A stretch of 62,284 nt of DNA from Vicinamibacterales bacterium (GTDB lineage Bacteria; Acidobacteriota; Vicinamibacteria; Vicinamibacterales; CAVVIG01). The translations under genes and the position numbers were made by a program. The notes under the pieces were generated by a model. The model searched no databases. It saw only the letters and a program-made list of their open reading frames with translations, and had not been told where the DNA came from. Numbering within the stretch: the first letter of the stretch is position 1; every line of letters begins with the position of its first letter. Below, piece after piece: positions 7,874 through 53,906 of this stretch. The stretch covers positions 1 through 62,284 of the forward strand of contig DAIUKO010000006.1 in assembly GCA_036848175.1 (NCBI GenBank), in the 5' to 3' direction.

Positions 7874-7932
7874 CTAGTGGACCGTTTGACCTGAAGCAGG
7901 ACCAGCCACAACAAGCGTTGGACCGCGATTTC

Positions 7933-7957
7933 CGGGCCGTTCCAACGGAACGGCCCG
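7933..7957. promoter_or_regulatory. perfect 11-bp stem / 3-nt loop hairpin in the 109-nt spacer between the two paralogous membrane-protein genes
   Basis: cgggccgttcc-aac-ggaacggcccg, read directly. No U-tract follows on the transcribed (minus) strand. Confidence 0.6.
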
Positions 7958-7982
7958 CTTTACGTTTCGAGGAGACACTCCG

Positions 7983-9476: not shown

Positions 9477-9498
9477 GCGTTTCAGGTCGCGCGGGTGT

Positions 9499-14326: not shown

Positions 14327-14331
14327 GAACG

Positions 14332-18240: not shown

Positions 18241-19949
18241 CGGTAGTGCGCGAGGCGCCGTTCGGGATCCATGCTGCGGTCCAGCGATCGCGAGAATTCA
18301 TCGGCGAGCTCGACGCGGAACACATGAATCCGTCCGAGGTACGTGTGCGGAGAGACGTACGACGTCGCCTCCACGATTCGAATCTCGGGGTCGGTCGTCG
18401 GGAACGACTTCACGAAGCGCATGTAGTCGTACAAATCCGAGTAGTCGCCGTCCCAGGTGACGATCCATCGCGGATTGAGAAACACGATCTTCTTGAGATA
18501 GGCCAGCGACGAAGGATTCGGGGCGACGGCGCGCTTCGCCGCCAGCGCCGCATCGAACGATGCCGGCCACATCCCGGCGAAGTAGCGCTCGCCGCCGTAG
18601 GTGACGACGTGATACGGCGGGCTCAGGTAGGTTCCGAACGGGCTCGGGCAGTAGACGCGGTCGGCGGGTTTGGCGCCGGCCGACAGCATCGCGCCGTTCA
18701 GCTCCGCGCGAAATCTGCCGTATTCCGCGAACTTGAACCCGTTGTGCAGTCGCTCGGCGGCAACCGTCGTGTCGTGGGCGGCGATGAACATCGCCACCGC
18801 GAGCGCGACCGCGCCGGCCGTCAACGGCGTCGAGTGCTGGACCTCGAACCACGCGCGGACTGGGAATAGCAGCATCGACACCGACAGCGCCAACGCCAGG
18901 TACCAAGCCGATCGATAGATGACCGTGTAGCTGCCGACGAAATTCTTCAGGAACAGCCAGTCCATGATGAACGACAGCGCGAACGCGACGGACAGAACGA
19001 TGACCCCGTGGAGATACACTCGGAGCGTTGGCCACGAGGGCAGCCGATCGCGCATGGCCGCCGCGACGAGGCCGACCATCACACCGGGCAGCGCGTAGGC
19101 GAAATGGACGTTGGCAAAGTGCTCCCAGACCGGCTGCGCCGACGACAGCAACTCGCCAACGCGTCCGGCCGCCGCCATCTCGTACCGCTGCGGCCACGCG
19201 ACGTTGCCGGTCGCCGCGTTGCCGAGCATCTGCACCACGATGTTCCGCCAGTCATCCGTCGCAGCGAAGTATCCGTAGAGAAGCGCCGGGATCGCACAGG
19301 GCGCGAGGAACGCAGCGGCATGCCGCACATCGAGCAGGTCACGAAAATGGATGGCCACGAACAGCACGAAAATCGGCAACAGCACGATCGCCGCAGCGGG
19401 ATGCGTCAACGCGCAGACGATCGCGCCGGCGCTCGCCGCGGCGAGCACGACAGGCCGGTGGTTGCGCCATACGTGCCACTCCAGCAGCATGACCGTGGCG
19501 GCGAAGTATCCGAACGCGGCGGTCATTTCCGGCCGGCCCGCGAGCGCGGCGGCAATCACCAACCGATCGGAGACAAACGCCGCGACGAAGACGAGTCCGA
19601 TCACGAGGTCGCCACGGTAGACCGCGTAAGCCATCGCCGACGCGATCAACAAGGCGAAATGAAAAATGTTGGCCAGCGCGATCGACTCGGAACGTTCACC
19701 GTACAGCCGGATCAAGGCGGCGTGAACGGTCGCGTAGTAGTACATCGTGAAGTTGTAGGTGCGGTGCGCGATGTTCAGGCCGGATCCCATCAGCGGCGAC
19801 CCGAAGTCGCCGGCGCGGACGAGACTGAACGACGGATAGGTGTATTCGTAATCGTCGTGCATGAACAGCGGGACGACGCCAAGGCTGGTGATGCCGCCGA
19901 ATACGATCACGAAGGACAACAATCCAGCCGCAGTGGCGCGCGCCCTCAT
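18237..19949 (-). CDS. GT-C-like polytopic membrane glycosyltransferase (ArnT/PMT-like)
   Basis: ORF 18237..20201 trimmed to ATG 19949 (MRARATAAGLL...; ATGA). Many TM helices, acidic HDDYEY in the first loop, and a soluble C-terminal domain. Lies directly downstream of a polyprenyl-P-sugar GT2. Confidence 0.75.
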   Translation of the reverse strand: MRARATAAGLLSFVIVFGGITSLGVVPLFMHDDYEYTYPSFSLVRAGDFGSPLMGSGLNIAHRTYNFTMYYYATVHAALIRLYGERSESIALANIFHFALLIASAMAYAVYRGDLVIGLVFVAAFVSDRLVIAAALAGRPEMTAAFGYFAATVMLLEWHVWRNHRPVVLAAASAGAIVCALTHPAAAIVLLPIFVLFVAIHFRDLLDVRHAAAFLAPCAIPALLYGYFAATDDWRNIVVQMLGNAATGNVAWPQRYEMAAAGRVGELLSSAQPVWEHFANVHFAYALPGVMVGLVAAAMRDRLPSWPTLRVYLHGVIVLSVAFALSFIMDWLFLKNFVGSYTVIYRSAWYLALALSVSMLLFPVRAWFEVQHSTPLTAGAVALAVAMFIAAHDTTVAAERLHNGFKFAEYGRFRAELNGAMLSAGAKPADRVYCPSPFGTYLSPPYHVVTYGGERYFAGMWPASFDAALAAKRAVAPNPSSLAYLKKIVFLNPRWIVTWDGDYSDLYDYMRFVKSFPTTDPEIRIVEATSYVSPHTYLGRIHVFRVELADEFSRSLDRSMDPERRLAHYR

Positions 19950-23422: not shown

Positions 23423-25474
23423 CTACCTGACGACACCCCAGGACGAACGGGACGCGTCGAGAAAGGGCGTCCAGTAGTGAAACGCGTCGTTTCGCAGCAG
23501 CCAGTCATGAAGCGGCCACGCGCCGATGGCGAGAACCGAGACGCCGACCAGTACCGCGGCCGTCGCGCGATGGCGTTCGAGGAGCGCTCGATAGAAATCT
23601 GGATCGAAGAGCAGCGGCACGGCGGCAACGAGAATCGCCACGCCAACCGCACCGTAGTACCGGCCTTCGCTCGTTTGCATGATCCAGAACAGCGGCGCGT
23701 TGAGGAACAGCGGCCAAGCGAGGAGCAGCGTGCGCGCCCGCTGATATCCGGTCGCCGCGGCCAGCGCAATCGTCGTCAGGAACAGCAGAATCAGCGATCC
23801 TCGTCCCACGATCTGAAACACCGACTGCTGCAGATCGGTGGGGATGCCGGGCCACAGGTCGCCGCCCACGCATCGCATCAGCTTGTTGTAGACCATGACG
23901 ATGACGTGGCCCGGATACGTCAGCCAGAACTTGAACACTTCGCGCACGACGACGTTGCTGGCGGCCTGCGATTTCTGCTCGAACGGTGTGTGCGCCGACA
24001 CCCATGCGAAATACGATTCGTCCGAACAGACCCACGGAAAACGGCTCGGCACTTCCCATAGCCCGCACAGCAGCGACGCACCGGTCGTCGACGTCGTCGG
24101 CACGAACTCTCCGGTGTAGCGCATCTTGTAGCCCGCCCAGCCGATGCCGATCGCCGCGGCCAGCGCGATCGGGATCAGCAGGCGGCGCGGATCGCGCGCG
24201 TGCAGGATCAGCGAGACGATCGCCCATCCGGGCAGCACGTCGGGCCGCATCAGGAACCACACGGCAAAGAGCAGATGCAGGACCAGATCGATCCGCGCGA
24301 CCGGCCGGTCCTCCTCACGTGCGGCAAGCCGCAGGCACAGCGTCGCGAGAATCAGCAGTGCGATCGGCGCGATGATCGAATCGACCTGCGTGTAGCCGAG
24401 TTGTTTGGGCAACATCGCGAGCAGCAGGCCGAGCGTCCAGACGACCGGCGGTCGCCAGAGCCGGCCCGCCGCCCATGTGAAGAAGCCGAGCGCACCGCTG
24501 TAGAACAACACCTGCAGCAAGACAGTGGCGGTGGCGAGATCGACGAAGGTCCGCGCGCCGAACAACAGCGCGGCGGCCGAGGCGAAGAGACCGTAGCCAG
24601 GCATCTTCGCCCATGACACCAGGCCGTCTGCCACCGTGAGGCCCTGGCCGTGGAGGAGACGCGTCGCTTCCCACAGCGCGCCGTTCAGGTTGCTGCCGGC
24701 GATTTCCTGCATCGGTCCGCTCGCGTAGGACGCGCGAAGATCCCGGGCCGTGTACGGCGAGTACAGCACTGCCAGATCGAGCAGGCACAGCGAGAAACAG
24801 ACGACCGCCAGGATGAACGGATTGAATCTCCTGAGCAGCGAAGCCGGCACGAAGAACGCCGCGATGATCGTGAAGAAACAGAGTCGCATCACCGCTCTTG
24901 GAACCAGAGTCCCGTGATATCTCTGAGGCGGGATGAATTGAAAGAGCGGACGCTCGTCCGACAGCAACCCTCGAGTGTCCTCGAACAATCCCAGCTCGGC
25001 GACGACGATCGGCGCCGGCGTTGCCGGCGCGAACGAGATCGCCGTGATGGCGTCGTGAGCAGGAAGCGGGATCGCGGTCCGAGCGAAACTGCCTGGCAGC
25101 TTGATCGGTTCGATGGCCGCCGCGTTGCCGTGCGACGCATGGTGCCACTGGAGCGTGGTCGGCGACGGCACGCTGACGAGGAGATGGTGCGCCTTCGTCA
25201 TCACCGCCGGCGCCTCGAATGCGACCGTCAGCAGCGTCGCTGGCGCGTCAGTGGCCACGCGATATCGTCCCTGCGAGAGTTCCGTGACCGTCACATGGCA
25301 GGTCGATTCCGATTCAGCGGCCTCACAGGTGCCGGCGACATGCGCGGCGAGTCCAGGAGGCGCGCCGACAAACACGCCTTTCACGTCGTGCATTCCCGCA
25401 TAGATGATGACCGCGACGGCGAGCACGAACTCGCCGGCGATCGCCGTCCGGCCGATCCGCGACAGCGAGGTCAT
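23423..25474 (-). CDS. large polytopic membrane protein with N-terminal extracytoplasmic domain (GT-C/O-antigen-ligase-like, unassigned)
   Basis: ORF 23423..25822 trimmed to ATG 25474 (MTSLSRIG...; ATGA). One TM, a ~200-aa soluble region, then many TM helices. Confidence 0.7.
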   Translation of the reverse strand: MTSLSRIGRTAIAGEFVLAVAVIIYAGMHDVKGVFVGAPPGLAAHVAGTCEAAESESTCHVTVTELSQGRYRVATDAPATLLTVAFEAPAVMTKAHHLLVSVPSPTTLQWHHASHGNAAAIEPIKLPGSFARTAIPLPAHDAITAISFAPATPAPIVVAELGLFEDTRGLLSDERPLFQFIPPQRYHGTLVPRAVMRLCFFTIIAAFFVPASLLRRFNPFILAVVCFSLCLLDLAVLYSPYTARDLRASYASGPMQEIAGSNLNGALWEATRLLHGQGLTVADGLVSWAKMPGYGLFASAAALLFGARTFVDLATATVLLQVLFYSGALGFFTWAAGRLWRPPVVWTLGLLLAMLPKQLGYTQVDSIIAPIALLILATLCLRLAAREEDRPVARIDLVLHLLFAVWFLMRPDVLPGWAIVSLILHARDPRRLLIPIALAAAIGIGWAGYKMRYTGEFVPTTSTTGASLLCGLWEVPSRFPWVCSDESYFAWVSAHTPFEQKSQAASNVVVREVFKFWLTYPGHVIVMVYNKLMRCVGGDLWPGIPTDLQQSVFQIVGRGSLILLFLTTIALAAATGYQRARTLLLAWPLFLNAPLFWIMQTSEGRYYGAVGVAILVAAVPLLFDPDFYRALLERHRATAAVLVGVSVLAIGAWPLHDWLLRNDAFHYWTPFLDASRSSWGVVR

Positions 25475-26049
25475 CGGCGCAAGTACAGGCGCAGTGACTT
25501 GATGGTGACGCGCGACTCGCCCGCCGCGTTCCTGTTCGCGATCGTCACCATCAGCGACCGGCGGAATCCGAGGAGGGCCGAGTTCAACCCCGAAAACGGG
25601 CCCGTGCTCTGTGACGAGTTGATCGCGATCCACTCGCCGCCTTGTTGAATCCCGATCGTCACGCCGCCCCGCTCGACGTCGGCGTCGAACTTGATCCCGG
25701 CCGTATGTGCGCCGTTGGCGCGGATCGTGGCGAAGGCCTGATATCCATACGGCTCGTCGCTGGTCGTGAGCGTGAGCGCGCCTTCGCGGAGTTCGAAGAT
25801 TCGTGGATGGACCGTCTGCCACGGCAGCGTGGTGAGGTCGTAATCAGGATTCACCGGCGCAGCCTGAAGAACGTTGGTGCTGTTGTACCACCACGACAAG
25901 CGCGCCAAATCCAGGTATTGCGACCACAGCAGCCAGAGTCCGGCGGCGGCGATGGCGAGCGTCGCGAACCCGCGCAGCCGGCTCAAAAGCAGTCTTCCCG
26001 TCCTTCCAGCCACGACGCGTGCCACAGCACTGCGTTCAACACGGTCCAC
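25471..26049 (-). CDS. membrane-anchored protein with C-terminal beta-rich domain (paralogue 2)
   Basis: 192-aa ORF with a single TM (ATLAIAAAGLWLLW), then ...GGVTIGIQQGGEWIA...STGPF...TIANRNAAGES...LRLYLRR. The alternative TTG start at 25986 would form a TTGA overlap with the asnB-like stop. Confidence 0.7.
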   Translation of the reverse strand: MDRVERSAVARVVAGRTGRLLLSRLRGFATLAIAAAGLWLLWSQYLDLARLSWWYNSTNVLQAAPVNPDYDLTTLPWQTVHPRIFELREGALTLTTSDEPYGYQAFATIRANGAHTAGIKFDADVERGGVTIGIQQGGEWIAINSSQSTGPFSGLNSALLGFRRSLMVTIANRNAAGESRVTIKSLRLYLRR

Positions 26050-27983
26050 AACTGGAAACTGTGGCCGCCCGATCCGTCGATCTGCGCCGTGAGCAATCGG
26101 CGGAAGTAGTCGTTGTCGAAGAAGCCGTCCTTCTTCAGCTCCGACCGATCGAAGGCCGCGAGACTTCGCCGCCCGAAGTCGCCTTCGCGGAACCAGTCTT
26201 CCATCGGCGCGCCGAAGCCCTGTTTGCGGCGGTAGATCATGTCGTGATCGAGATACGGCTCCGCCGCTTTCTTGAGCAGTCGCTTGCCGACGCCGTCGCG
26301 CAGTTTGTAGGAGGGCGGCAGCCGCATCGCGAAGTCGACCACGTCGTGATCGAGAAACGGCACACGCGCCTCGACGGCGTGGGCCATCGTCAATTTGTCG
26401 ACCCGCATCAGCAGATGCTCGGGCAGACGAAGCTTCATCTCGAGATAGGGAATCTTGTACAGGACCTCGGGTTCACAGACGCGCCCGTCCAGCGGCGCGA
26501 CGTAGTGGCGAACGACGTCGTGGCTGTCGAGCGTCGTCAATGACTCAGGCAGCAAGTCCGCGACCGGACAGCTGATCGACTGGACGAATGGATCGCGCCT
26601 CGGCGTGAGGCGTGCGCGCGCCTCTCCCCACCAGCAGACGGCGCCGCCCCAGAACATCTCGCGTCCTGCTTCGCCGCGGCGCCGGATTTCGAGATCCTCG
26701 CCGCTGAAGCCGGGCGTGCGCGCCTTCACGGCCGGCATCCAGCGACGCCAGCCGTTGGCGCCGTTGCGGGCGGGGCGGTACACCGACTCGTATTTCTGAC
26801 GGTAGTGTTCGCACCACCAGTAGCCGAGGAAATTCTCGTCGGCGCCTTCGCCCACCTGCACCACCGTCGTCCCGCGTTCTTTCACCAGACGGGCGAGGAA
26901 GTAGAGCGGGATGCACACGTTGTCGGCGATCGGCTCGTCCTGCAGCCGGACGAGCAGCGGCAGGAAGTTCTGCGCCTCTTCGCCGTTGATGAACGTCTCG
27001 TGGTGATCGGTGCGATAGCGCTCGCTCACCCGGCGGGCGAACTGAAACTCGTTGTAGTCCTCTTTGCCTTCGTAGCCGATCGTGAACGTCGTCACCGGAC
27101 GCGTCATCAGTTCGCTCATCAGCGCGACGTTCAACGACGAATCGACGCCGCCCGACAGCAGCACGCCGAACGGCACGTCGGACACCATGCGTCTCGCAAT
27201 CGACTGCTTGAGGAGGCGCGTCACCTCGCCGACGGCCTCGGACTCGCTGAGGTCGCGCTCGGAGAGGAACCGCGATCGATCGGGCTGGCAGTCCCACCAC
27301 TGGGTCGTGCGCGCCTCGCCGCGCCCGTCGATCGTGATGCGGTGCCCCGCCGGAATCTTGAAGATGCCGCGGAACATCGTCAGCGGCGCCGGGGCGACGA
27401 TGAAGGTCAGGTAGTGCCAGAACGCGGTGCGATCCATCTCCGGCGACACGTCCGGATGCGCGAGCAGCGCGCGAATCTCCGACGCGAACAGCCACTCACC
27501 CGACGCCGTCCTGGTGACGTAGAGCGGCTTGATGCCGACGCGATCGCGCACGAGGTGGACGACCGGACGGTCGCGGTCGCGGCAGTCGTAGAGCGCGAAC
27601 GCGAACATCCCGTAAAGCTTGTGCAGGCAGTCGAGCCCCCACTCTTCGTACGCGTGCAGGAGCATCTCGGTGTCGGAGTGGTCGGTGCGCCAGCGGTACT
27701 TGCCGAGCGCTTCGAGCTCTTTGCGGATCTCGGCGTGGTTGTAGATCTCGCCGTTGAACACCAGCGACACGGTCTCGTCGTCGTTGCTCATCGGCTGCGA
27801 CGCGTTGGTCGAGACGTCGATGATCGACAGCCGGCGATGACCGAGCGTGCAGCGGCGATCGCGCGCGCACCAGATGCCGACGCCGTCCGGGCCGCGATGG
27901 GCCATCCGATCGCGCATCTGCACTACCACATCCGGTCCGCCGCTGGCGCCGCCCGGCTTGAACGCTCCGACAATGCCGCACAT
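25983..27983 (-). CDS. asparagine synthase-family glutamine amidotransferase (AsnB-like, copy 1)
   Basis: 666-aa ORF with an MCGIVG Ntn-amidotransferase start and PP-loop LLSGGVDSS. Confidence 0.9.
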   Translation of the reverse strand: MCGIVGAFKPGGASGGPDVVVQMRDRMAHRGPDGVGIWCARDRRCTLGHRRLSIIDVSTNASQPMSNDDETVSLVFNGEIYNHAEIRKELEALGKYRWRTDHSDTEMLLHAYEEWGLDCLHKLYGMFAFALYDCRDRDRPVVHLVRDRVGIKPLYVTRTASGEWLFASEIRALLAHPDVSPEMDRTAFWHYLTFIVAPAPLTMFRGIFKIPAGHRITIDGRGEARTTQWWDCQPDRSRFLSERDLSESEAVGEVTRLLKQSIARRMVSDVPFGVLLSGGVDSSLNVALMSELMTRPVTTFTIGYEGKEDYNEFQFARRVSERYRTDHHETFINGEEAQNFLPLLVRLQDEPIADNVCIPLYFLARLVKERGTTVVQVGEGADENFLGYWWCEHYRQKYESVYRPARNGANGWRRWMPAVKARTPGFSGEDLEIRRRGEAGREMFWGGAVCWWGEARARLTPRRDPFVQSISCPVADLLPESLTTLDSHDVVRHYVAPLDGRVCEPEVLYKIPYLEMKLRLPEHLLMRVDKLTMAHAVEARVPFLDHDVVDFAMRLPPSYKLRDGVGKRLLKKAAEPYLDHDMIYRRKQGFGAPMEDWFREGDFGRRSLAAFDRSELKKDGFFDNDYFRRLLTAQIDGSGGHSFQLWTVLNAVLWHASWLEGREDCF

Positions 27984-28007
27984 ATATGGATCCTGAGAAC
28001 GGAGTCG

Positions 28008-28035
28008 CGGCGCGGGGCTTTCAGGCCCCGCGTCG
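28008..28035. promoter_or_regulatory. GC-rich hairpin in the 78-nt spacer upstream of asnB-like copy 1
   Basis: cgcggggc (28011-18) pairs with gccccgcg (28025-32), loop tttcag, plus 2 more flanking pairs. An alternative pairing is ctttcagg (28018-25) with cctgaaag (28041-48). Confidence 0.5.
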
Positions 28036-28061
28036 GCGACCCTGAAAGGGCCGCCCCACAG

Positions 28062-29285
28062 TTACCGTGACGGCCGGATCATCCGGATAATCCAGCGCTG
28101 CCAGCCGCTGCGCATCCAGTCCTGCTCGCGCCGCAGCTCGTCGATGGTGTCGTCGCGGCGCTGCACCTCGCGCACCATGCGATCGTGGATTTCGCGGATG
28201 ATGTCGTCGCGGCGGTTGACTTCCTGCTGGACCGCCGCCCGTTCGAGGTCGCGCCTGTTGATCTCGTCCTGCATCTTGACGAGCTGCAGTTCGCGATCGA
28301 CGTCGACGCCCGCCGGCTGAGTGGTCATCACCTCCGGCAGCGATCGCCGCCACGATTGCTCCGGATCTTCGATCAGCGTGCGCCAGTTGGCCGCATCGCC
28401 GCTGTCGGCCGGCGCGGCGCCGGCGGCGGGTTTGACCGACAACGTCATCAAGTACTCGCGCATCGTCGGATCCCGAACCATGTTCCAGTGGTTGTGGACG
28501 TCGCGGGACGAGAGCGTGCCGAGCGCGTACGAGCTGTAGTTGAACGCCTCGACTGAAATCTGCCGGTGGCCGATCCGGTGCAGCATCCACACCAGCTCGG
28601 GGATCGTGTACTCGCGGTGATGTCCTTCGAACGGCAGCTCCGTCTCGTATTGCGCGTCGATGCCGGCGAGCACCGTCTCGCCGCGCGCGAACTTCTGGCG
28701 GTTGTAGAGGTGGACGAGGTTCGGCGTGTCGAGGACGAGGACGCCGCCGCCGGCGAGCACGCGATTGAGCGTCTCGAGCAGCGGCCGCGGCGAGCTCGGG
28801 ATGTGCTCGATGACGCCCATGCACAAGACGACGTCGTACGCGCCGCCGACGCTGGCGAGCTCGTATCCGACATCGCCGAAATCGAGCACGCGAACGCCGG
28901 CGTGCGCCAACAGTGGTGTGACGCGATCGAATGCCGGCTGATAGGTGCGATACGAATCGACGGCGTCGACCGAGAACCCGGCGCGCGCGAACATCAACGC
29001 GAAGTTGCCGAAATACGATCCGTAGTCGAGCATCCGCCCGGACGTGATCCCGCGTCGCCGCAGCGCGGCCGCCGCGTGGACCATGCGCGCGATGCTGCAG
29101 CGGAGATAGGCCGGCCAGTCGAAGCCGGCGAGCGCCGGCGACCGCCGCGCGAGCGGGCTGAAGTCAACGCCGGCGATCGCCGCCGCGATCGAGTCGAACG
29201 CCGACCGCGCGCCCGGCAGATCGTCCGGAAAATCCGCCTCGAGGCATTCCGGAAAGTTCAAGGCGAGCCGTTCCTGAACTTCCAT
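28062..29285 (-). CDS. SAM-dependent methyltransferase with C-terminal coiled coil and amphipathic tail (WbdD-like architecture)
   Basis: ORF 28062..30041 trimmed to ATG 29285 (MEVQERL...). MLDYGSYFGNF, VVLCMGVIEHI, GGVLVLDTPN. The last ~90 aa are a charged heptad-like stretch (…QDEINRRDLERAAVQQEVNRRDDIIREIHDRMVREVQRRDDTIDELRREQ) ending WMRSGWQRWIIRMI. Confidence 0.8.
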   Translation of the reverse strand: MEVQERLALNFPECLEADFPDDLPGARSAFDSIAAAIAGVDFSPLARRSPALAGFDWPAYLRCSIARMVHAAAALRRRGITSGRMLDYGSYFGNFALMFARAGFSVDAVDSYRTYQPAFDRVTPLLAHAGVRVLDFGDVGYELASVGGAYDVVLCMGVIEHIPSSPRPLLETLNRVLAGGGVLVLDTPNLVHLYNRQKFARGETVLAGIDAQYETELPFEGHHREYTIPELVWMLHRIGHRQISVEAFNYSSYALGTLSSRDVHNHWNMVRDPTMREYLMTLSVKPAAGAAPADSGDAANWRTLIEDPEQSWRRSLPEVMTTQPAGVDVDRELQLVKMQDEINRRDLERAAVQQEVNRRDDIIREIHDRMVREVQRRDDTIDELRREQDWMRSGWQRWIIRMIRPSR

Positions 29286-31105
29286 CACTCGAGACTCCAC
29301 ACCCCTTCGAGCACGTGTCGTGTGCCGCTGCCGATCAGACCGGACCCGACGACCGACACGTCGAACAGACGCGACACGCAGGAATACACCGACGGGTTGA
29401 TCGAGTAGAACACCACTTGCTCGGTGTCGTAATAGCCTTCCCTGGCGATCATCACGGTCACCGAGTACGACCCGTTGGTCAGCGTCAACTGCGGAATCGT
29501 CAGCCGCACGGTGCCGCGCTGCCGCCTCGATGCATCGAACAGCAGGTCGCGCGTGATGTAGCGGCACACGTCCTCGATGCCGTCCTTGTGCAGCGCGATG
29601 ACCACCTGACACCGCTCGCGCAAATCGGGTTGAAAGATCGCGTAATCGATGTCGAGCCGCGCCCGCTCGCCGTGCTCGAGGATGTGCAGTTCGCCGCCGT
29701 CGGCGGACACGAACCTCGCGCCGGTGACGACGACGGCGCCGGTGCCGTGGACGCCGGAGACGTTCAGCGTGCGCATGGCCGCCTCGCTGCCGCTCGATGA
29801 CGCCATGGCACGATGCGTCGTCCAGTCCGCGGCGGTATCGGCGATGCGGCCGAGCGAGAGCTCGCTGCCGCGGACGTAGAGGCGAACGCTCACATCGCAC
29901 CGCTCGGGCGACGCGTAGTCGATTGAACACGCGAGCGGCTCGTCCGAGTCGAGCAGATCGGCCGGCACGGCGAACACGCCGGCGACCTTGTGGAACGGGC
30001 TGCCGTAGTTCAGCATCGGCCAGCAGACCCGCCCCTGCCACGTCGTCAGATCACCCCAGCTGGTGCCTTCGCGCTCGAGATGCGTGCCGCGATCCGGGTT
30101 GAATGCATCGGGATCGAGCGGCCACGCGGCCACGCGCTCGCCGCCCACGAGCAGAGACACGTCGCTGAGGTAGATCAGCCCGGGCTGCGGCCGGCCATCG
30201 GCGCTCGCGATTTCGAGGACGATGTGATCGACCGTGCGCGCTTTCGGATTCGCGGCAGCGAGCTCCTCCAGCTTCTGCTGTTTTTTCAGCCGCAGGCGAT
30301 GTTCTTCCTGGCGGCGGATGGAGTCCTCGTACGCCTTGACGACGGTCGGTCCGTCGCCGTCCATCAGCACGCGGCCGCGATCGAACCAGATGACGCGGTC
30401 GCACATGCGCACCGCCGAATACACGTCGTGCGTCACCAGCAGCAGCGTCGCGTCGTGCCGTTCGCACAGATCGCGCATGCGGTCGTAGCTTTTCTGCGCG
30501 AAGTAGGCGTCGCCGACGCCGAGCACTTCGTCGAGGACGAGCAGGTCGGGCGAGATTGCCGTCGACGCGGAGAACATCAGCCGCATCGCCATCCCCGTCG
30601 AGTAGGTCTTCACCGGCTGGTCGATGTACTCCTCGAGTTCGGCAAAGGCGATGGCGTCGGCACAGCGCCGCTCGGCGTCGCGGCCGGTCACACCAAGCTG
30701 CGCGAGGTACGCCTCGACGTTCTGCCGGCCGGTGAAATCGGGATGGAAACCGGTGCCGATCTGCAGGAGCGCGTGCACGTCGCCCTTCACCTCGAGCGTG
30801 CCCGACGTCGGTTCGATCACCCTGGTGACGAGCTTGAGGAACGTGCTCTTGCCGGCGCCGTTGCGGCCGATCACCGCAATCTTCTCGCGGCGGCGGATCT
30901 CGAGCGTGATGCCGTCGAGCGCCGCGTGCTCCGTGTACGCGCCCGGCCGGTCGCCGAGCATCCCGAACATGTCGAGAAATCGATACGACGGCTTCGCGTA
31001 GAGCCGGTAGACCTTCTTCAAGTCCGTCGCCCGGATCACGACCTCGCCGACGTCAGCGGCATCGACGCGACTGACCACCGCCGCGGCGTTGACGGCCTCG
31101 CTCAT
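29285..31105 (-). CDS. Wzt-like ABC transporter ATP-binding protein with ~340-aa C-terminal extension (no adjacent permease)
   Basis: ORF 29285..31936 trimmed to ATG 31105 (MSEAVNAAA...; ATGA). Walker A GRNGAGKST, signature YSTGM, Walker B LLVLDE. These are followed by a short coiled coil and two beta-rich modules. Confidence 0.85.
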   Translation of the reverse strand: MSEAVNAAAVVSRVDAADVGEVVIRATDLKKVYRLYAKPSYRFLDMFGMLGDRPGAYTEHAALDGITLEIRRREKIAVIGRNGAGKSTFLKLVTRVIEPTSGTLEVKGDVHALLQIGTGFHPDFTGRQNVEAYLAQLGVTGRDAERRCADAIAFAELEEYIDQPVKTYSTGMAMRLMFSASTAISPDLLVLDEVLGVGDAYFAQKSYDRMRDLCERHDATLLLVTHDVYSAVRMCDRVIWFDRGRVLMDGDGPTVVKAYEDSIRRQEEHRLRLKKQQKLEELAAANPKARTVDHIVLEIASADGRPQPGLIYLSDVSLLVGGERVAAWPLDPDAFNPDRGTHLEREGTSWGDLTTWQGRVCWPMLNYGSPFHKVAGVFAVPADLLDSDEPLACSIDYASPERCDVSVRLYVRGSELSLGRIADTAADWTTHRAMASSSGSEAAMRTLNVSGVHGTGAVVVTGARFVSADGGELHILEHGERARLDIDYAIFQPDLRERCQVVIALHKDGIEDVCRYITRDLLFDASRRQRGTVRLTIPQLTLTNGSYSVTVMIAREGYYDTEQVVFYSINPSVYSCVSRLFDVSVVGSGLIGSGTRHVLEGVWSLE

Positions 31106-32241
31106 CGCCTTCCTGCCGCAGCGCGCGACCGTTCGACAATGCCGCGAAGCGTGGCGGCGAGCGTCGGCGCGTGCACACGCAGCGAATAGCGCTCGTCGAT
31201 CGTCCGGCGGCCCGCCTCGCCCATCCGGAGGCGCAACTCGCGATCGGTGAGCAGCCGTTCGAGCTTCCCCACCCATTCGTCTTCGCTGGAGGCGAGAAAT
31301 CCGTTGACGCCTTCGGCGATGATCTCGCGATTGACGCCAATCGCCGACGCCACGACCGGCACGCCGCACGCCATGAATTCGATGGCCTTGAACCCGCACT
31401 TCCCTTTCGACCACTCGTCGTCGGCGAGCGGGTAGACGCCGATGTCGCAGGTGTTGAACAGCTCGACCTCGCGATCGAGCTTCCACGGCGGCTGATCGGT
31501 GGTGAGGCCGGGAATGGTCAGCGGTTCGTTCGGGCCGCTGACGCGCAGGATGAATCGATGCCGCTCGGCGACGCGCTGCAGCACTCCGGTCAGGCCCTGC
31601 ACGTACGATGCGGTCGTCGGACTGCCGATCCAGCCGACAATCAGGTCGCGATCGCCGCTCGATCCGTTCGCCGAGAACGCGTCGGGGCGCGGCACGAACC
31701 TCGTCGTGTCGACGCAGGTCGGGATGACGGTGACCGCGTCGTTGAAGCGGCGCGCGTAGGCCGCCAGGTACTCGTTGCCGGCGATGATGTGATCGCTGTG
31801 GCGGATGGTCGTAGCGACCTTGCCCGGCGATTTGAGCGGCAGGATCGGACGATTCGCGTCGCTGACGCTCGGCAGAAAAATCGCGTCGTCGAAATCGAAG
31901 ACGACCGGCGGCGTTTCGCGGCGGCCGAGCAGCCACTCGACCAGCGCCGGTCCGATCGGAAAAATCTCGCGATAGATGAGAATGGCGTCGAAACTGGCGG
32001 CATCGTGCAGCGCGCTCAGATGCCGCAGCGACAGCGAGGCGAACGTCGAGGCCTTGCGGATGTATTGACCCGGCTTGTAGACGAGATGGAAGAAGTCGGC
32101 GTCGAACAGCGATCGCAGCGTCACGTCGATGCCCACCGAGCGCAGGTACGGAATGTACTGCGCGATGCGGAACCGGCAGCCCGCACCTTCCTCAGGGATG
32201 GGCGACAGCGCCAGGACGCGAAGGCGATCGTTCACGTTCAT
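31102..32241 (-). CDS. GT4 (GT-B fold) glycosyltransferase
   Basis: ORF 31102..32292 trimmed to ATG 32241 (MNVNDRLRVLAL...; ATGA). KCGFKAIEFMACGVPVVAS. Confidence 0.85.
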   Translation of the reverse strand: MNVNDRLRVLALSPIPEEGAGCRFRIAQYIPYLRSVGIDVTLRSLFDADFFHLVYKPGQYIRKASTFASLSLRHLSALHDAASFDAILIYREIFPIGPALVEWLLGRRETPPVVFDFDDAIFLPSVSDANRPILPLKSPGKVATTIRHSDHIIAGNEYLAAYARRFNDAVTVIPTCVDTTRFVPRPDAFSANGSSGDRDLIVGWIGSPTTASYVQGLTGVLQRVAERHRFILRVSGPNEPLTIPGLTTDQPPWKLDREVELFNTCDIGVYPLADDEWSKGKCGFKAIEFMACGVPVVASAIGVNREIIAEGVNGFLASSEDEWVGKLERLLTDRELRLRMGEAGRRTIDERYSLRVHAPTLAATLRGIVERSRAAAGRR

Positions 32242-34622: not shown

Positions 34623-35770
34623 GCCAGCGCCTCGGTGAGCACGCGGTCGTAGACGAGCGCGATCGACTCGGTCCGGTACTGCTCGGCGTGTCGCCGCGCA
34701 CCATCGGCCATCTTCTGGCGGAGCGCGGCGTCGTGCAGGAGCGACGCGAGCGCCGCGGCAAAGGCAGCGGGGTCGTGATCGTCGACCAGCAACCCGTTCG
34801 CGCCCGACGTCACGATTTCACGCGTGCCCGGCGAGCTGGTGGCGACGACCGGGACGCCGCACGCCATCGCCTCGACGATCACGTTGCCGAATCCTTCGTA
34901 TCGCGACGTCAACGCGAACACGTCGGCGCGAGCGATGTAGCTCCAGGGGTTGGTCCGAAAACCGCACAGGTGAACGCTGTCGTCGAGACCGCGATCGTGA
35001 ATCAGCCGCCGCAGCTCCGCTTCCTGATCGCCTTCGCCGAGGATGAACAGCGACGCCGGCATCTCGTGTCGCAGGATCGCGACGGCTTCGACGAGGAGCG
35101 GAAAGTTCTTCACGGCCGCAAGGCGGCCCGCGGCGACGATCACGGGACGACGCCACCGCGCGGCGTCGGCGGCATCGAGCGGCTCTCGCGCCGCGGCGGC
35201 GACCGAGGCGAGATCGACTGGATTGTTGACCACGCGGACGCGCGCCGACTGGCCGCGAAACGATTCGATCAGATCGTCGGCGACGCCTTGTGAGGTCGCG
35301 AGCACGAGATCGGTCACCGTGCAGCCGATGCGCATCGCCGTCGCCAGCATCCAGCGATTCCACGGACGCGACCATCGAAAGTCGGCGTCGGTCAGAAACG
35401 CGGACATCGGCGTTCCGACGGCGAAGACCACCTTGGCGCCGACGCCGGCCGCACGTGCCGCAGTCAGGACGGTCAGATAGCTGAGAAACGCGACGATCAC
35501 GTCAGGCCGGGTGCGGCGGATGAACTGACGCAGCGCATTCCAGCGTCCCACCCGGCCCAGAGAAGCGGTCGGCACCGCGGCTTCGAGGCGAATCGACGGT
35601 GCGACGTCGGCGAGGTATGGTCCGCGGCGCTCGAACAGGAACATCGATCGATCCCATCGCGCCGCATCGAGTGCGTTCAGGACCTGCACCGCGACGCGCT
35701 CGGCGCCGCCGCCGGAGAGCGACGGCACGACGAAGCAGACTTTCAGGCGAGGCTCGGTCGTGTGCTTCAT
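34619..35770 (-). CDS. GT4 (GT-B fold) glycosyltransferase
   Basis: 383-aa ORF with SLSGGGAERV and EGFGNVIVEAMACGVPVVAT. Confidence 0.9.
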   Translation of the reverse strand: MKHTTEPRLKVCFVVPSLSGGGAERVAVQVLNALDAARWDRSMFLFERRGPYLADVAPSIRLEAAVPTASLGRVGRWNALRQFIRRTRPDVIVAFLSYLTVLTAARAAGVGAKVVFAVGTPMSAFLTDADFRWSRPWNRWMLATAMRIGCTVTDLVLATSQGVADDLIESFRGQSARVRVVNNPVDLASVAAAAREPLDAADAARWRRPVIVAAGRLAAVKNFPLLVEAVAILRHEMPASLFILGEGDQEAELRRLIHDRGLDDSVHLCGFRTNPWSYIARADVFALTSRYEGFGNVIVEAMACGVPVVATSSPGTREIVTSGANGLLVDDHDPAAFAAALASLLHDAALRQKMADGARRHAEQYRTESIALVYDRVLTEALA

Positions 35771-37926
35771 CCGGCCGGCTGCGCGGCAGGCTGGCGGAGT
35801 GCGACGTGCAGCTGGCTCGACACCATTGCCGCAATCCGCGCCGCCTGCGTCTCGAGCGTGTACGTCCGTGCCGTTCGGTAGCCGTTCGCAATCAGGGCGC
35901 GCCGGAGATCGGCGTCACGAATGATTCGTGCGACGGCGCCAGCGATCTCCTCCGGTAATGCCTGGTACTCGTAGGGCGGCCCGTTTGGGGCCGCCGCCGT
36001 TTCGACGAGCAGCCCGTTCGCTTCGTGTGTGATCAGACTCGGAATTCCCGCGACGCGCGTCGTCACGATCGGCACTCCCGCGCTCATCGCCTCGAGCAGG
36101 ACGCGCGGCACACCTTCGCCGGGCAGCGTCGGCAGCACGAACAGATCGTAGTCGGCGTACATCGGCAGCAGCCGATCGAGCGGCACGATGCCCACCAGCC
36201 GGACACGGTCGGCCACAGCGAAGCGCTCGGCGTCGGCGACGATCGCGGTCTGCTCGTCGCGGCCCGGCGATCCGACCACCGGACCGACGATGTCGAGTGT
36301 CACATCGAGGCCGGCATCAACGAGGAGCCGCACCGCCTGCGGAAGCACACGCAGCCCCTTGCGCGGATCGATGCGGCTGACCGACATCAGGCGCACAGCC
36401 CGATTGAGGCAGGTATCCTCGCGTGTCGCGATGTCGCGCTCGCCGATCGTCGTCGTGATCGTCTCGATGACCGGGCGATCGGCGCGCGTGTGCTTCGCCG
36501 TCAGCGCTGCGCCGTTGGCAAATGTCAGCGCGCGATCCGCCATCCATTGAATGTTTCGTTCCTCGAATGCCGTATACCAGCGCCAGAGGGCCCGCTTGAT
36601 CCCCCGATAGGGCAGCGTCGGCAGCAGCGCGCGGAGATCCCCGACGATCAGGATGAATGCCGGCCGATCGAGCAGACGGCCGATCGCAAAGGCGAACGCG
36701 GCCGCCGGGCTCGGAACGCGGCAATGCACGACATCGATTCGGCGCGCCCAGCGGACCAGTCTCGGCAACACGGTCGCGAGACGGCGGTAGAACTGCAGCG
36801 GACCGTCGAAGGCCGGAAGCGGCGCCACGGTCACGTTGGTCGATCGAATCGGGGTTCCTTCTCCGGCCGGCGACTCGAGGAGCGGCACGCACAGGGAGAT
36901 CTCGTCGAAGTACGGCGCGAGCGAATCGACGTATCGCGCGAACGATCCCTCGGGCTCGCGCAGCGTGCCATCGGCTCCGCGCCAGAACGGCATGTGGTAG
37001 ACGATGCCAAGGTGGATTCCCGTCGGGATTTGGGATTCGGGATTTGGGATTCGGTCGGGATTCGGGGTTTGGGACTTGGGATTCGGGATTCGGTCGGGAC
37101 TCGGGATTTGGGACTCGGGATTCGGGATTCGGTCGGGATTTGGAGTTTGGGATTCGGGACTCGGGATTCGGTCGAGATTCGGGATTCGGTCCGCATTCGG
37201 AATGCGATGGTCGCGCTTTCGGGCCACCGCGAGCACGTGGAGATGCACGTCCGACCGGAATCGCTCGATCGATTCGACGTCGAGATCGACCGCTGCAAGA
37301 ACCTCCTCCACGCGCTGCTCGTCGGCGTAGAGCCCGCCGCTCATCAACCGCGCGCGCAGCCGGCGCCGCAGTCCCTCCGGCGCAATTCGCAGCAGCCTTT
37401 CGCCGATGCGCCGGCTCACCGTTCTCGGCACCGAGAAGGACATCGGATGCACGGTCGTGAACGCGAAGCGCCCGCCCGGCCGGAGCCATCGCTTCACTCT
37501 CGACGCCATCGTGTCGTCGAACGGCGAATGCTCGGCGAGGACGCCGATCGAGTACACGAGATCGAACTCGCCGTCCGGGAACTCGTGTTTCAGAAAATCG
37601 CCTTCGACCAGCGTGAGACACTCCGCGGGAATCGACACCTCGCCGACGGGATGCCGCGCCCGCTCGAGCATCGGCTGCGAGACGTCGATGCCGACGAGCC
37701 GCCGCACATGAGGGAGGGCCTGGAAATATCGTCCCGTGCCGCAGCCGAGATCGAGGACGTCGATCGGCCGCATGAACCGGTTGCAGACCTCGCGCAGCCA
37801 CGCGCAGAAGTGACCGTAGGCTTCGCCGCTGCGGATCGTCTCGTCATGCGCGCGATACTGCTCGGCATACGCGTCGGTGTACAACGCCGCGGCTCGTGCT
37901 CCCCACCGCGTCCGGACATCGATCAA
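35767..37926 (-). CDS. fusion protein: SAM methyltransferase - Pro-rich tandem-repeat linker - GT4 glycosyltransferase
   Basis: ORF 35767..38370 trimmed to TTG 37926 (LIDVRTRWGARAAALYTDAY...; TTGA with the carbamoyltransferase stop). MT motif VLDLGCGTGRYF, a linker of DRIPNPESQIPSP-type 13-aa repeats, and GT4 motif EGVPRVLLEAMSAGVPIVTT. Confidence 0.8.
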   Translation of the reverse strand: MIDVRTRWGARAAALYTDAYAEQYRAHDETIRSGEAYGHFCAWLREVCNRFMRPIDVLDLGCGTGRYFQALPHVRRLVGIDVSQPMLERARHPVGEVSIPAECLTLVEGDFLKHEFPDGEFDLVYSIGVLAEHSPFDDTMASRVKRWLRPGGRFAFTTVHPMSFSVPRTVSRRIGERLLRIAPEGLRRRLRARLMSGGLYADEQRVEEVLAAVDLDVESIERFRSDVHLHVLAVARKRDHRIPNADRIPNLDRIPSPESQTPNPDRIPNPESQIPSPDRIPNPKSQTPNPDRIPNPESQIPTGIHLGIVYHMPFWRGADGTLREPEGSFARYVDSLAPYFDEISLCVPLLESPAGEGTPIRSTNVTVAPLPAFDGPLQFYRRLATVLPRLVRWARRIDVVHCRVPSPAAAFAFAIGRLLDRPAFILIVGDLRALLPTLPYRGIKRALWRWYTAFEERNIQWMADRALTFANGAALTAKHTRADRPVIETITTTIGERDIATREDTCLNRAVRLMSVSRIDPRKGLRVLPQAVRLLVDAGLDVTLDIVGPVVGSPGRDEQTAIVADAERFAVADRVRLVGIVPLDRLLPMYADYDLFVLPTLPGEGVPRVLLEAMSAGVPIVTTRVAGIPSLITHEANGLLVETAAAPNGPPYEYQALPEEIAGAVARIIRDADLRRALIANGYRTARTYTLETQAARIAAMVSSQLHVALRQPAAQPAG
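37011..37208. repeat. imperfect GGGATT[CT]/GGGACTC heptamer satellite organised in 39-nt (5x7+GGTC) higher-order units, inside the fusion CDS
   Basis: Read directly: gggattt gggattc gggattt gggattc ggtc / gggattc ggggttt gggactt gggattc gggattc ggtc / ... At least 21 recognisable heptamers lie between 37025 and 37187, followed by two 18-nt units. Confidence 0.9.
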
Positions 37927-39863
37927 TCGAGGACGAACTCCTGTCGCCACGATTCGTCCTTCATCTCCGGCGTCATCGTCTGGTCGGTCTTGAGCAGCAG
38001 ATGGTGTTCGAGCACGAGCGCGTCGATGTTGGTCCGCATGAAGCACCGGTACGCGTCTGCCGGCGTGCAGACGATGGGCTCGCCGCGAACGTTGAAGGAC
38101 GTATTGACGATGACCGGACAGCCGGTCAGCCGAAAGAAGGCGTCGATGACGTCGTAGTAGAGCGGGTTCGTCTCGCGCCTGACCGTCTGAATGCGCGCCG
38201 AGTAGTCGACATGGGTGACCGCGGGAATCGTCGAACGTGGCACGTTCAGCCGCTCGATGCCCCAGAGCGGCGCGGCCTCGTCGAGCGCCGGCTGTTCGGG
38301 CAGCCGCCGCGTTTCGTCGACGTCGGCGACGAGGAGCATGTACGGACTGTCGCGATCGAGCTCGAACCATGAGGCGACATGCTCGCGCAGGACGGCTGGC
38401 GCGAACGGACGGAACGACTCGCGGAACTTGATCTTGAGGTTCATCATCGACTGCATGCGCGGCGATCGCGCGTCACCGATGATCGAACGGGCGCCGAGCG
38501 CGCGCGGTCCGAACTCCATGCGGCCGTGCAGCAGGGCGACGACTTTTTCCTGCGCGAGGAGCGCCGCGATTTCCCCGGCCAGCGCCGACGGATCGACGCG
38601 CCTGGCCGCGCCGCCCTGAGCGTCGAGGAACGCCTGAATCTCGTCGTCGGTGAACCGCGGACCGAGCAGCGATCCCTGCATGAGGTCGGCGTACTTCGGC
38701 GGAATCGACGGTCGCGCGGCGTGAAGCGGCCGGCCAGCCTCCGCCAACGCCTTTGCCGGCTCGCGCCGCGGACGCTCCCACGTCCCGTCCGCCTCGCAAC
38801 TCACGCGCGGTTTGCCGAGATGACGATGCCACAGGCTCAACGCCACGCCGAGAGCGCCGCCGGCATCGCCGGCTGCCGGTTGAATCCAGATCTCGTCGAA
38901 TGCCCCGTCGCGAAGAATGCGGCCGTTCGCGACGCAGTTGAGCGCGACGCCGCCCGCCATGCAGAGATCGCGCATGCCGGTCTCGCGGCGCGCGAACTGC
39001 GCCATCTTCAGCATCACCTCCTCGGTGATGTCCTGAACGGAACGCGCGAGATCCATTTCCCGCTGCGTCAACGGAGTCTCAGGCTCGCGGGCCGGGCCGT
39101 CGAACAACTGCTCGAACCCGCGGCCGGTCATCGTCAGTCCGTGCGGGTACGTGAAGTAATCCATGTTCATCCACACGGTCCCGTCGTCGCCGATCTCGAG
39201 AAGATGGTCTTTGATCGCCTTGACGTACTTCGGCGTGCCGTACGGCGCGAGGCCCATCACCTTGTATTCGCCCGAGTTCACACGGAAGCCGGTGAAGTAG
39301 GTGAACGCCGAATAGAGCAGGCCGAGTGAATGCGGAAATCGCAGCTCGTGCATCAGCTCGAGATCGCTGCCGCGGCCGATGCCGATTGACGAGGTCGCCC
39401 ACTCGCCAACGCCGTCGATGGTGAGGACCGCCGCCTGCTCGAACGGCGAGGGATAGAACGCGGAGGCCGCGTGCGACTCGTGGTGCTCCCCGAACAGCAC
39501 CTCGCCTTTGTAGCCCTCGAGGTGGCCTTGGATGTCGTCGGCCATCCAGAGACGCTCGCCGATCCACAGCGGCATCGCCTTCAAGTACGACTTCAACCCC
39601 TTCGGTGCACACGCGACGTAGGTCTCGAGCAGCCGTTCGAACTTGACCAGCGGCTTCTCGTAGAAGCCGACGAGGTCGAGGCTGCGTGCGTCGACGCCCG
39701 CCTCACGAAGGCAGTACTCAATCGCCCGCGACGGAAAGCCGGCGTCGTGCTTCTTGCGCGTGAAGCGCTCCTCCTGCGCCGCCGCGATGACGCGGCCGTC
39801 CTCGACGAGACACGCCGCTGAGTCGTGGTAGTACGCGGAGATTCCGAGGATACGTATCGACAA
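37923..39863 (-). CDS. carbamoyltransferase (NodU/CmcH/SxtI family)
   Basis: ORF 37923..39965. The conserved N-terminus begins at TTG 39863 (LSIRILGISAYYHDSAACLVEDGRVIAAAQEERFTRKKHD). ATG 39965 would add 34 low-complexity residues read through a tandem repeat. Confidence 0.9.
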   Translation of the reverse strand: MSIRILGISAYYHDSAACLVEDGRVIAAAQEERFTRKKHDAGFPSRAIEYCLREAGVDARSLDLVGFYEKPLVKFERLLETYVACAPKGLKSYLKAMPLWIGERLWMADDIQGHLEGYKGEVLFGEHHESHAASAFYPSPFEQAAVLTIDGVGEWATSSIGIGRGSDLELMHELRFPHSLGLLYSAFTYFTGFRVNSGEYKVMGLAPYGTPKYVKAIKDHLLEIGDDGTVWMNMDYFTYPHGLTMTGRGFEQLFDGPAREPETPLTQREMDLARSVQDITEEVMLKMAQFARRETGMRDLCMAGGVALNCVANGRILRDGAFDEIWIQPAAGDAGGALGVALSLWHRHLGKPRVSCEADGTWERPRREPAKALAEAGRPLHAARPSIPPKYADLMQGSLLGPRFTDDEIQAFLDAQGGAARRVDPSALAGEIAALLAQEKVVALLHGRMEFGPRALGARSIIGDARSPRMQSMMNLKIKFRESFRPFAPAVLREHVASWFELDRDSPYMLLVADVDETRRLPEQPALDEAAPLWGIERLNVPRSTIPAVTHVDYSARIQTVRRETNPLYYDVIDAFFRLTGCPVIVNTSFNVRGEPIVCTPADAYRCFMRTNIDALVLEHHLLLKTDQTMTPEMKDESWRQEFVLD

Positions 39864-50468: not shown

Positions 50469-50545
50469 AACTAGTCGGACCCACGCCGCGAAGCGGCGCC
50501 CACCTGATCCACGCGCCGAAGGCGCCCACGCCGCGCGAAGCGCGG

Positions 50546-52009: not shown

Positions 52010-52058
52010 TAGCTCGGCATCTCTTCGTGGCGCCCGTTCAGGGCGGCCGGAGTGTTCT

Positions 52059-53809: not shown

Positions 53810-53829
53810 GAGTAGTCTCGTTCAACTCG

Positions 53830-53906
53830 CTCGTCCTGAGCTTGTCCTGAGCTCGTCGAAGGACGAGTCGAACCGCTGCTCACCCTTCGACAGGCTCAGG
53901 GTGAGC
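53830..53906. repeat. two REP-like GC-rich palindromic hairpins between neuC and neuB
   Basis: Hairpin 1: ctcgtcct (53830-37) pairs with aggacgag (53860-67), with an inner gagct/agctc stem. Hairpin 2: gctcaccct (53878-86) pairs with agggtgagc (53898-906) and contains the neuC stop codon. Confidence 0.75.

Follow-up and report, generated by a model that had tools for sequence, protein, structure and literature searches.

Chain terminators of bacterial polysaccharides made by pathways that depend on an ATP-binding cassette (ABC) transporter share a recognizable design: a catalytic head, a coiled-coil ruler and a membrane-proximal end (PMC11231755). ORF6 of Klebsiella pneumoniae O7 and WbbB of K. 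pneumoniae O12 are multi-module coiled-coil terminator/polymerase proteins and show that polypeptides can differ in how terminator head, coiled-coil ruler and polymerase modules are shared out among them (PMC11231755). The cap is recognized by the binding module of Wzt, the ATPase of the exporter; for example, the ligand of the Aquifex aeolicus WzmWzt transporter is a methylated (3-O-methyl) terminal sugar (PMC9445017). In that Wzt a hinge helix (residues 226-240) is followed by a 9-residue linker and then by the binding module, and the cap pocket sits at the interface of ATPase domain and binding module (PMC9445017). What is understood of the coupling between termination and cap recognition comes almost entirely from Aquifex and a handful of enterobacterial O antigens. 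The stretch of DNA analyzed here, called the window throughout, comprises 62,284 nucleotides of a Vicinamibacterales bacterium (Acidobacteriota; assembly GCA_036848175.1, contig DAIUKO010000006.1). It has about 66% G+C and about 53 genes, nearly all on the minus strand, and forms one very large glycan-biosynthesis island. Within it an ATPase of the Wzt type, Wzt2, is encoded directly before an S-adenosylmethionine (SAM)-dependent methyltransferase, MT1. At their junction (GAG TGA TGG) the TGA stop and the ATG start overlap by 1 base, as a preliminary description of the locus had reported. Wzt2 is proposed to read, and MT1 to write, a terminal cap in a polysaccharide pathway that depends on an ABC transporter, and the pair to lie inside a conserved cassette; this proposal is given about an even chance of being right. 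A writer and reader pair is favored because the two proteins fit, in function and with the differences set out below, the published signature of a terminator and a cap reader.

Wzt2 was read in the preliminary description as a Wzt-like ATPase of 606 residues with a nucleotide-binding domain, a short coiled coil and two beta-rich modules; Pfam and the AlphaFold2 model agree with this, the model showing a single helix in the place of the putative coiled coil (Table 1). Pfam places ABC_tran at residues 63-194 and Wzt_C (PF14524) at 453-567, the latter with 37.6 bits against a cut-off of 30.4, and the model, in four parts, has a mean predicted local distance difference test (pLDDT) score of 82.9. 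The ATPase domain is 37% identical to that of A. aeolicus Wzt over residues 24-261 (E = 3e-49), the Wzt-specific N-terminal segment included. Foldseek ranks full-length A. aeolicus Wzt structures (8dne, 7k2t, 8dku; E about 1e-26) first, with an alignment that spans the whole query. A C-terminal Wzt_C module is supported by Pfam, by the beta-rich model of residues 458-605 and by Foldseek alike. Walker A (GRNGAGKST), Q115, YSxGM, LDE and H226 are invariant in 50 Wzt2 homologues, and so are residues Y259, E260, S262, R264, Q266, E267, E268, R270, L271 and R272 of the helix. Wzt2 thus has the ABC ATPase motifs, the similarity to a characterized Wzt and the C-terminal beta-sandwich expected of a Wzt. 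A further mark of a Wzt, a partner Wzm encoded with it, is missing in the window and is present in orthologous loci of other phyla.

Between the helix and the Wzt_C module lies a second beta-rich domain, beta-module 1. It gave no Pfam match at E <= 1 and, with the family profile, no PDB match at E <= 10. Duplication of the Wzt_C module (module 2) was considered as its origin and rejected, the hhalign profile-profile probability being 0.5%. HMMER, run exhaustively against 1.84 billion representative proteins, returned only 62 clusters. In the full-length matches the module occupies about residues 250-420 of proteins of 520-1058 amino acids (aa), directly behind an ATPase domain; about half of the matches are shorter proteins, probably fragments. 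As judged from these searches, beta-module 1 is a new domain, unlike module 2 and found only in the family of Wzt2.

MT1 contains Methyltransf_23 at residues 63-241 according to Pfam. Its AlphaFold2 model (pLDDT 91.5) shows a Rossmann-type core (1-285), three short helices within 301-321 and an unbroken helix (329-403), the last with pLDDT 80-96 up to residue 400, and the protein ends in the basic, Trp-rich DWMRSGWQRWIIRMIRPSR. The charged, heptad-like terminal helix of the preliminary description is thus seen as a continuous helix of 75 residues, half of them charged, and its heptad character is modest: the hydrophobicity power at period 3.5 reaches z = 2.1 (p = 0.04 against shuffles), with a family median of z = 1.8. 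In the best register the a positions (7-residue seam) read L-I-R-V-I-M-R-L and half of the d positions are polar. There are 463 homologues of about 400 aa, and the tail beyond the core varies from 94 to 201 residues among 88 homologues, one fused outlier of 315 set aside. The best 14-residue window of the family tip has a median net charge of +3 (at least +3 in 58% of homologues), and the acidic helix before the tip has a charge of -1 per 14 aa. For the tip, the hydrophobic moment is not significant on the Kyte-Doolittle scale and has p = 0.05 on an interfacial scale. Those homologues of Wzt2 and MT1 that carry names come from Acidobacteriota, mainly from Vicinamibacterales and 'gp6'.

The structures nearest to MT1 by Foldseek are generic class I methyltransferases (4htf, 4kdc, 8joz), e.g., CmoM/SmtA and UbiG. 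PDB searches yielded no WbdD chain, either with the single sequence at E <= 1 or, with the profile, among the best 60 of 115 matches at E <= 10, and none is in the top 50 Foldseek matches. A kinase domain of the O9a type was also looked for, and Pfam and the model show a methyltransferase core only; WbdD of the O8 type lacks the kinase as well. Since WbdD did not appear in these searches, the label 'WbdD-like' under which MT1 was first described is an analogy that applies to architecture, not to family membership. The terminator and reader roles suggested along with that label have fared better: the architecture matches the hallmark, with a candidate coiled-coil spacer and a candidate membrane anchor, the tail varies in length, the tip is typically basic and the two genes are adjacent in 23 of 29 loci. 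Homology to WbdD is not supported by the searches. NCBIfam holds no specific family for MT1, for Wzt2 or for the neighboring unannotated proteins.

The pair is conserved well beyond the Acidobacteriota. Metagenome contigs and one genome per species were scored with the window proteins, and 29 non-redundant loci with an MT1 orthologue were obtained. A long Wzt of the Wzt2 kind stands directly upstream of MT1 on the same strand in 23 of them, elsewhere in the locus in four (Myxococcaceae and Xanthobacteraceae among them), and is absent from two. The 23 loci belong to Acidobacteriota, cyanobacteria (Microcoleus, Symploca), Gemmataceae, Nitrospiraceae, Nitrospinaceae, Pseudomonas (P. putida 31800, P. 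fuscovaginae SE-1), Burkholderiales, Hyphomicrobiaceae and Humidesulfovibrio. The third conserved member of the triad is AsnB1, an amidotransferase encoded next to MT1, with orthologues in 25 of the 29 loci and 63-85% identity from phylum to phylum. The gene order in P. putida and Microcoleus is Wzm, long Wzt, MT1, MT2 (a different methyltransferase), AsnB1, AsnB2. The glycosyltransferases around the cassette vary between phyla and the cassette does not, a pattern that would be expected of an export and termination unit rather than of backbone synthesis. Gene order and orthology place Wzt2 and MT1 at the core of a conserved, uncharacterized cassette of these six genes. AsnB1 is suspected of a part in making the end structure because it is so strongly conserved and linked to the pair; it probably contributes to a conserved end structure or to a precursor, e.g., by amidating a uronic acid, which is speculation. 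No paper on Wzm/Wzt in Acidobacteria turned up in the literature searches, nor one on a Wzt/AsnB/methyltransferase/heparinase cluster or on a relevant glycan of P. fuscovaginae.

The helical stalk is found on one or the other of the two methyltransferases. MT1 carries a tail of 90-152 aa in 10 non-redundant loci, all Acidobacteriota-like, and MT2 is absent from all 10; a search of the window likewise found no MT2 homologue. MT1 has no stalk in 19 loci (in 18 it ends -4 to +4 residues from the core, and in L020 it continues for 24 non-helical residues), and 17 of these 19 have a match to MT2. MT2 of P. putida, Microcoleus, Nitrospinaceae and several Acidobacteriota bears a helical tail with a basic stretch at its end. 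The tails resemble each other in sequence. For example, the MT2 tail of locus L023 ends in '...DRTLDARLRRLARKVLGR' and matches the MT1 tail of L001, which ends in '...DRTFDARLRRLARKLLRR', and the MT2 tail of Microcoleus has the same EVxKRDEML repeats. In an uncultured alphaproteobacterium (L027, about 6897-9035) MT2 and MT1 are fused in a single reading frame, which suggests that the two act together. By these alignments the tails of MT1 and MT2 are homologous, the stalk and anchor form a portable module, and in the clade of the window it is MT1 that took over the stalk, as judged from its distribution.

Two loci, L005 (10001-12507, GCA_964359505) and L006, have two tandem MT1 paralogues behind the long Wzt. 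Both paralogues are stalked, and their stalks differ in length, about 108 and about 146 residues past the core. If the stalks are rulers, such paralogues could give two chain-length classes.

The proposed pathway would run as follows. The coupled family 4 glycosyltransferase (GT4) and other transferases would assemble a glycan on a lipid carrier, on the cytoplasmic side of the membrane. The basic, Trp-rich tip of MT1 would keep the enzyme at the membrane, and the helical stalk would place the catalytic head about 11 nm from it. Only chains that have grown to a certain length would then be methylated at the non-reducing end, and their growth would stop. Wzt2 would bind the capped end through its Wzt_C module, possibly aided by the inserted beta-module, for export through a Wzm channel. 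That channel would be the Wzm of the cassette's own lineage, encoded outside the window, and not the Wzm found at 48 kb.

Several observations weigh against this pathway. The heptad signal is weak enough, with polar d positions and half of the residues charged, that the stalk might be a single stable helix, and the amphipathicity of the tip is marginal. Searches with MT1 point to no specific relationship to WbdD. Outside the clade of the window MT1 has no stalk, and in four loci (L015, L017, L030, L042) the tail is on neither MT1 nor MT2, so that the stalk is common and not universal. About 190 residues separate the ATPase domain and the Wzt_C module of Wzt2, where A. aeolicus Wzt has a 9-residue linker; the geometry must therefore differ, and a cap pocket of the A. 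aeolicus style may not be formed in the same way, to go by the model. Finally, no cognate-type wzm was found within the 62-kb window, and its presence in this genome is deduced from relatives.

The main rival, possible but unlikely, takes MT1 as a decorating enzyme that methylates internal residues of the repeat, a lipid-linked intermediate or a precursor. The tail would then serve only oligomerization and membrane localization. Export kinetics or a different protein would determine chain length, and the tail of Wzt2 would read some other feature. A decorating role fits the tail-less MT1 of most phyla, where MT2 carries the tail, and the four loci in which neither enzyme has one. It is harder to reconcile with the occurrence of the tail on MT1 exactly where MT2 is missing, which suggests that the MT1 head can take the stalk position and that the system needs a stalk. 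Similarly, the weak heptad signal, the likeness of the MT1 core to small-molecule O-methyltransferases such as UbiG, and the several other methyltransferases of the window (including a methyltransferase-GT4 fusion at 35767-37884) would suit a decorator, and are to be set against the tight coupling, seen in 23 of 29 loci, of MT1 to a Wzt that bears a carbohydrate-binding module, and against the MT2-MT1 fusion of L027.

The partner of Wzt2 in the membrane bears on the proposal that ranks next. The window has a single ABC-2 permease (48442-49248); it lies 17.3 kb from the pair, and none adjoins Wzt2. It overlaps the start of its own Wzt1, so that the solitary wzm with its own wzt, placed 17 kb away in the preliminary description, is indeed there. 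BLASTP aligns Wzt1 with Wzt2 over the ATPase domain only, at 41% identity; the tail modules of the two bear no relation to each other. In L007, L019, L022, L025, L029, L030, L031, L032 and L042 the gene immediately before the long Wzt encodes a cognate Wzm; such a Wzm usually precedes the long Wzt outside the Acidobacteriota and does so in one acidobacterial locus (L030). Members of this Wzm lineage are 40-59% identical across phyla and 21-29% identical to the Wzm of the window, which was accordingly rejected as the cognate partner of Wzt2. In thirteen other acidobacterial loci no cognate-type Wzm was found within 10 kb. When the Wzm of L030 was used as a query, matches appeared on the same contigs as long Wzt or tailed MT1. 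For example, a cognate-type Wzm designated P0258 is encoded on a 145,941-bp contig that also has a Wzt2 orthologue (79% identical) and an MT1 (75% identical); no Wzt lies beside P0258, and it is 56% identical to the Wzm of Microcoleus, 53% to that of P. putida and 27% to that of the window. On a 141,642-bp contig, 52.5 kb separate the long Wzt from a cognate Wzm on the same strand. These findings are read most simply as a split of the transporter genes in the clade of the window, with the cognate wzm outside the 62 kb, as we infer from these relatives.

The preliminary description had instead taken Wzt2 and MT1 for a second terminator and reader set, which may serve a second polymer or a second cap chemistry and feed the same Wzm as Wzt1. 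Such sharing, by alternating homodimers or a Wzt1/Wzt2 heterodimer, is decidedly unlikely. The long-Wzt family has a well-conserved Wzm lineage of its own, in close relatives the gene of the cognate Wzm is an orphan located elsewhere on the contig of the long Wzt, and the Wzm of the window is coupled to Wzt1 by the overlap of start and stop; these facts outweigh the lone permease of the window, the thirteen acidobacterial loci that lack a nearby cognate-type Wzm, and the unrelated tails of Wzt1 and Wzt2, which would fit two different caps. Very improbable is a Wzt2 that acts as a soluble or peripheral ATPase, its beta-modules holding or delivering glycan or regulating synthesis with no docking to Wzm: the absent permease gene in this clade and the long, unusual tail with its family-only domain would allow it, and it is opposed by the ATPase domain 37% identical to A. 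aeolicus Wzt with the Wzt-specific N-terminal segment, by invariant catalytic motifs and by orthologues directly behind a cognate wzm in nine loci.

Writer and reader could be part of something larger, a rather unlikely extension of the proposal. The six-gene cassette would be an undescribed termination-and-export unit, spread over at least eight phyla and attachable to different glycan backbones. Its cap would be composite, e.g., a terminal uronic acid both methylated and amidated. The two-module tail of Wzt would read this cap, with the inserted beta-module as a second binding domain or a docking domain for the ruler. The stalk and anchor would have moved between methyltransferases, and the transporter genes would have been split tens of kb apart in Vicinamibacteria-like Acidobacteriota.

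The underlying principle of termination is already established; what is new is a cassette shared across phyla, a new Wzt domain and a migrating stalk. The cassette would extend the cap and export principle to soil Acidobacteriota, cyanobacteria, myxobacteria and pseudomonads, with the novelties of a Wzt that has an extra domain between ATPase and binding module, a ruler module moved between two enzymes, and a tightly linked amidotransferase. Because it occurs in the culturable P. putida 31800 and P. fuscovaginae SE-1, the predictions are directly testable. If confirmed, it would provide a portable 'measure, cap and export' unit for glycoengineering and would help to make sense of the very large glycan islands that uncultured soil bacteria carry.

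Table 1. Positions in the window of Wzt2, MT1, their parts and the genes discussed with them.
Feature	Position	Strand	Description and basis
Wzt2	29285-31105	minus	606 aa, Wzt-type ABC ATPase with extended tail; open reading frame and coding signal, Pfam
Wzt2 nucleotide-binding domain, residues 22-251	30353-31042	minus	AlphaFold2; aligns to 6amx/7k2t over residues 24-261
Wzt2 34-residue helix, residues 252-285	30251-30352	minus	Model; extended counterpart of the Wzt hinge helix
Wzt2 beta-module 1, residues 292-434	29804-30232	minus	Model, pLDDT mostly 77-96; family-specific inserted domain
Wzt2 beta-module 2, residues 458-605	29291-29734	minus	Wzt_C-type carbohydrate-binding module; Pfam, Foldseek
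MT1	28062-29285	minus	407 aa, class I SAM-dependent methyltransferase with helical stalk; Pfam, AlphaFold2
MT1 catalytic core, residues 1-285	28431-29285	minus	Family motifs FPxCL, YLRCSIARMVHA, PFEGHHREY; alignments A1, A3
MT1 continuous 75-residue helix, residues 329-403	28077-28301	minus	About 11 nm if straight; candidate coiled-coil spacer, E(V/I)xxRD repeats
MT1 basic, Trp-rich C-terminal tip (DWMRSGWQRWIIRMIR)	28074-28121	minus	Candidate membrane-interface anchor
GT4 glycosyltransferase	31102-32241	minus	Pfam Glycos_transf_1; upstream of Wzt2, candidate polymerizing or priming enzyme
AsnB1	25983-27983	minus	666-aa glutamine-dependent amidotransferase, asparagine-synthase family; Pfam Asn_synthase and GATase_7
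Wzm, different lineage (comparator)	48442-49248	minus	Pfam ABC2_membrane; probably not the partner of Wzt2
Wzt1 (comparator)	47175-48452	minus	425 aa, single Wzt_C module, coupled to Wzm; Pfam

The gene before Wzt2 encodes the GT4 enzyme, and the two reading frames overlap by 4 nucleotides (ATGA), an arrangement of translational coupling. Its orthologues in acidobacterial loci are found directly upstream of the long Wzt (L008, L010) or 2-6 kb from it (L001, L011, L012, L014, L023). Two of these loci carry unexpected taxonomic labels: L010 is labeled uncultured Chloroflexia and L014 Bifidobacteriaceae, and both show the acidobacterial type of arrangement with 52-82% identity to the window. The labels may be binning errors of contigs from metagenome-assembled genomes.

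On the other side of the pair, MT1 and AsnB1 are separated by a spacer of 78 nucleotides (27984-28061, minus strand) that can form a pair of GC-rich hairpins, followed by no T-run (-47.9 kcal/mol; z = -3.3 relative to shuffles). The spacer seems shorter in relatives, roughly 24-42 nucleotides in L009 and L008, so the hairpins may not be conserved. A scan of 25.5-35 kb for promoter and terminator consensus sequences gave nothing above shuffled expectation. Proteins of 683, 709, 561 and 192 aa (23423-25474, 40524-42653, 18237-19922 and 25471-26049, respectively) have no Pfam match at E <= 1, and the 683-aa protein has no NCBIfam match either. In L008, a close relative, large unannotated proteins occupy the same position behind AsnB1.

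Other parts of the island are also of note. At 35767-39863 the methyltransferase-GT4 fusion (705 aa, 35767-37884) adjoins a carbamoyltransferase of the NodU/CmcH type (646 aa), and Microcoleus and acidobacterial relatives (L007, L044) have similar fusions of glycosyltransferase and methyltransferase at the flanks of the cassette or of the orphan cognate Wzm. Heparinase II/III-like proteins are recurrent neighbors of the cassette in several phyla (P. putida 31800 locus L029, 4660-7398 and 2369-4663; L007, L044), and the Pseudomonas locus also carries a 912-aa radical SAM/SPASM protein. A sugar-tailoring block at 8478-17449 encodes an epimerase/dehydratase, a PhyH-like dioxygenase, a DegT aminotransferase, a family 2 glycosyltransferase, an HMGL-like lyase, an ATP-grasp amino-acid ligase and an amidohydrolase, which suggests amino sugars decorated with amino acids. 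At 47175-55106, Wzm and Wzt1 adjoin a GT87-like protein, a TagF-like protein of the glycerophosphotransferase family and a nonulosonic-acid set, made up of a CMP-transferase (52059-52772), NeuB (52778-53809) and a NeuC-like epimerase (53880-55106). These genes suggest a second, separate ABC-transporter-dependent pathway, in which a sialic-acid-like residue may be used as a cap or as a building block.

Compared with described systems, AsnB1 shares the GATase plus Asn_synthase architecture of the XrtA/PEP-CTERM amidotransferase (TIGR03108), its best NCBIfam model; it scores 485 bits, below the family cut-off of 816.9, and it adjoins MT1. It is presumably akin to the AsnB/WbpS-type amidotransferases of O-antigen clusters. 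The redistribution of modules known from ORF6 and WbbB of K. pneumoniae has a parallel in the stalk that swaps between MT1 and MT2 and in the fusion of both in L027. In contrast to ORF6 and WbbB, MT1 has no fused glycosyltransferase modules, the heads are not homologous, and the two AsnB-type amidotransferases of the cassette are lacking in those systems.

WbdD of Escherichia coli O8/O9a and K. pneumoniae O3/O5 has in common with MT1 an N-terminal SAM-dependent methyltransferase head, an extended helical spacer whose length varies among homologues, a basic/hydrophobic C-terminal segment that would suit the membrane interface, and a gene found together with that of a Wzt bearing a carbohydrate-binding module. 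MT1 differs in that it has no detectable sequence relationship and no top-ranking structural relationship to WbdD and is without a kinase domain. Its stalk is much shorter (75 residues) and weakly heptad-like, its gene overlaps wzt, and in other phyla the stalk module is on a different methyltransferase, MT2.

The closest likeness for Wzt2 is with A. aeolicus WzmWzt (7k2t, 8dku, 8dne), an O-antigen transporter of known structure, which shares the 37%-identical ATPase, the C-terminal Wzt_C beta-sandwich and the best full-length Foldseek matches. In the clade of the window wzm is not adjacent, unlike in A. aeolicus. The A. aeolicus Wzt, of about 400 aa, has a hinge helix of 15 residues and a 9-residue linker, whereas Wzt2 has a helix of 34 residues and an extra beta-module of 143 residues between the ATPase and Wzt_C.

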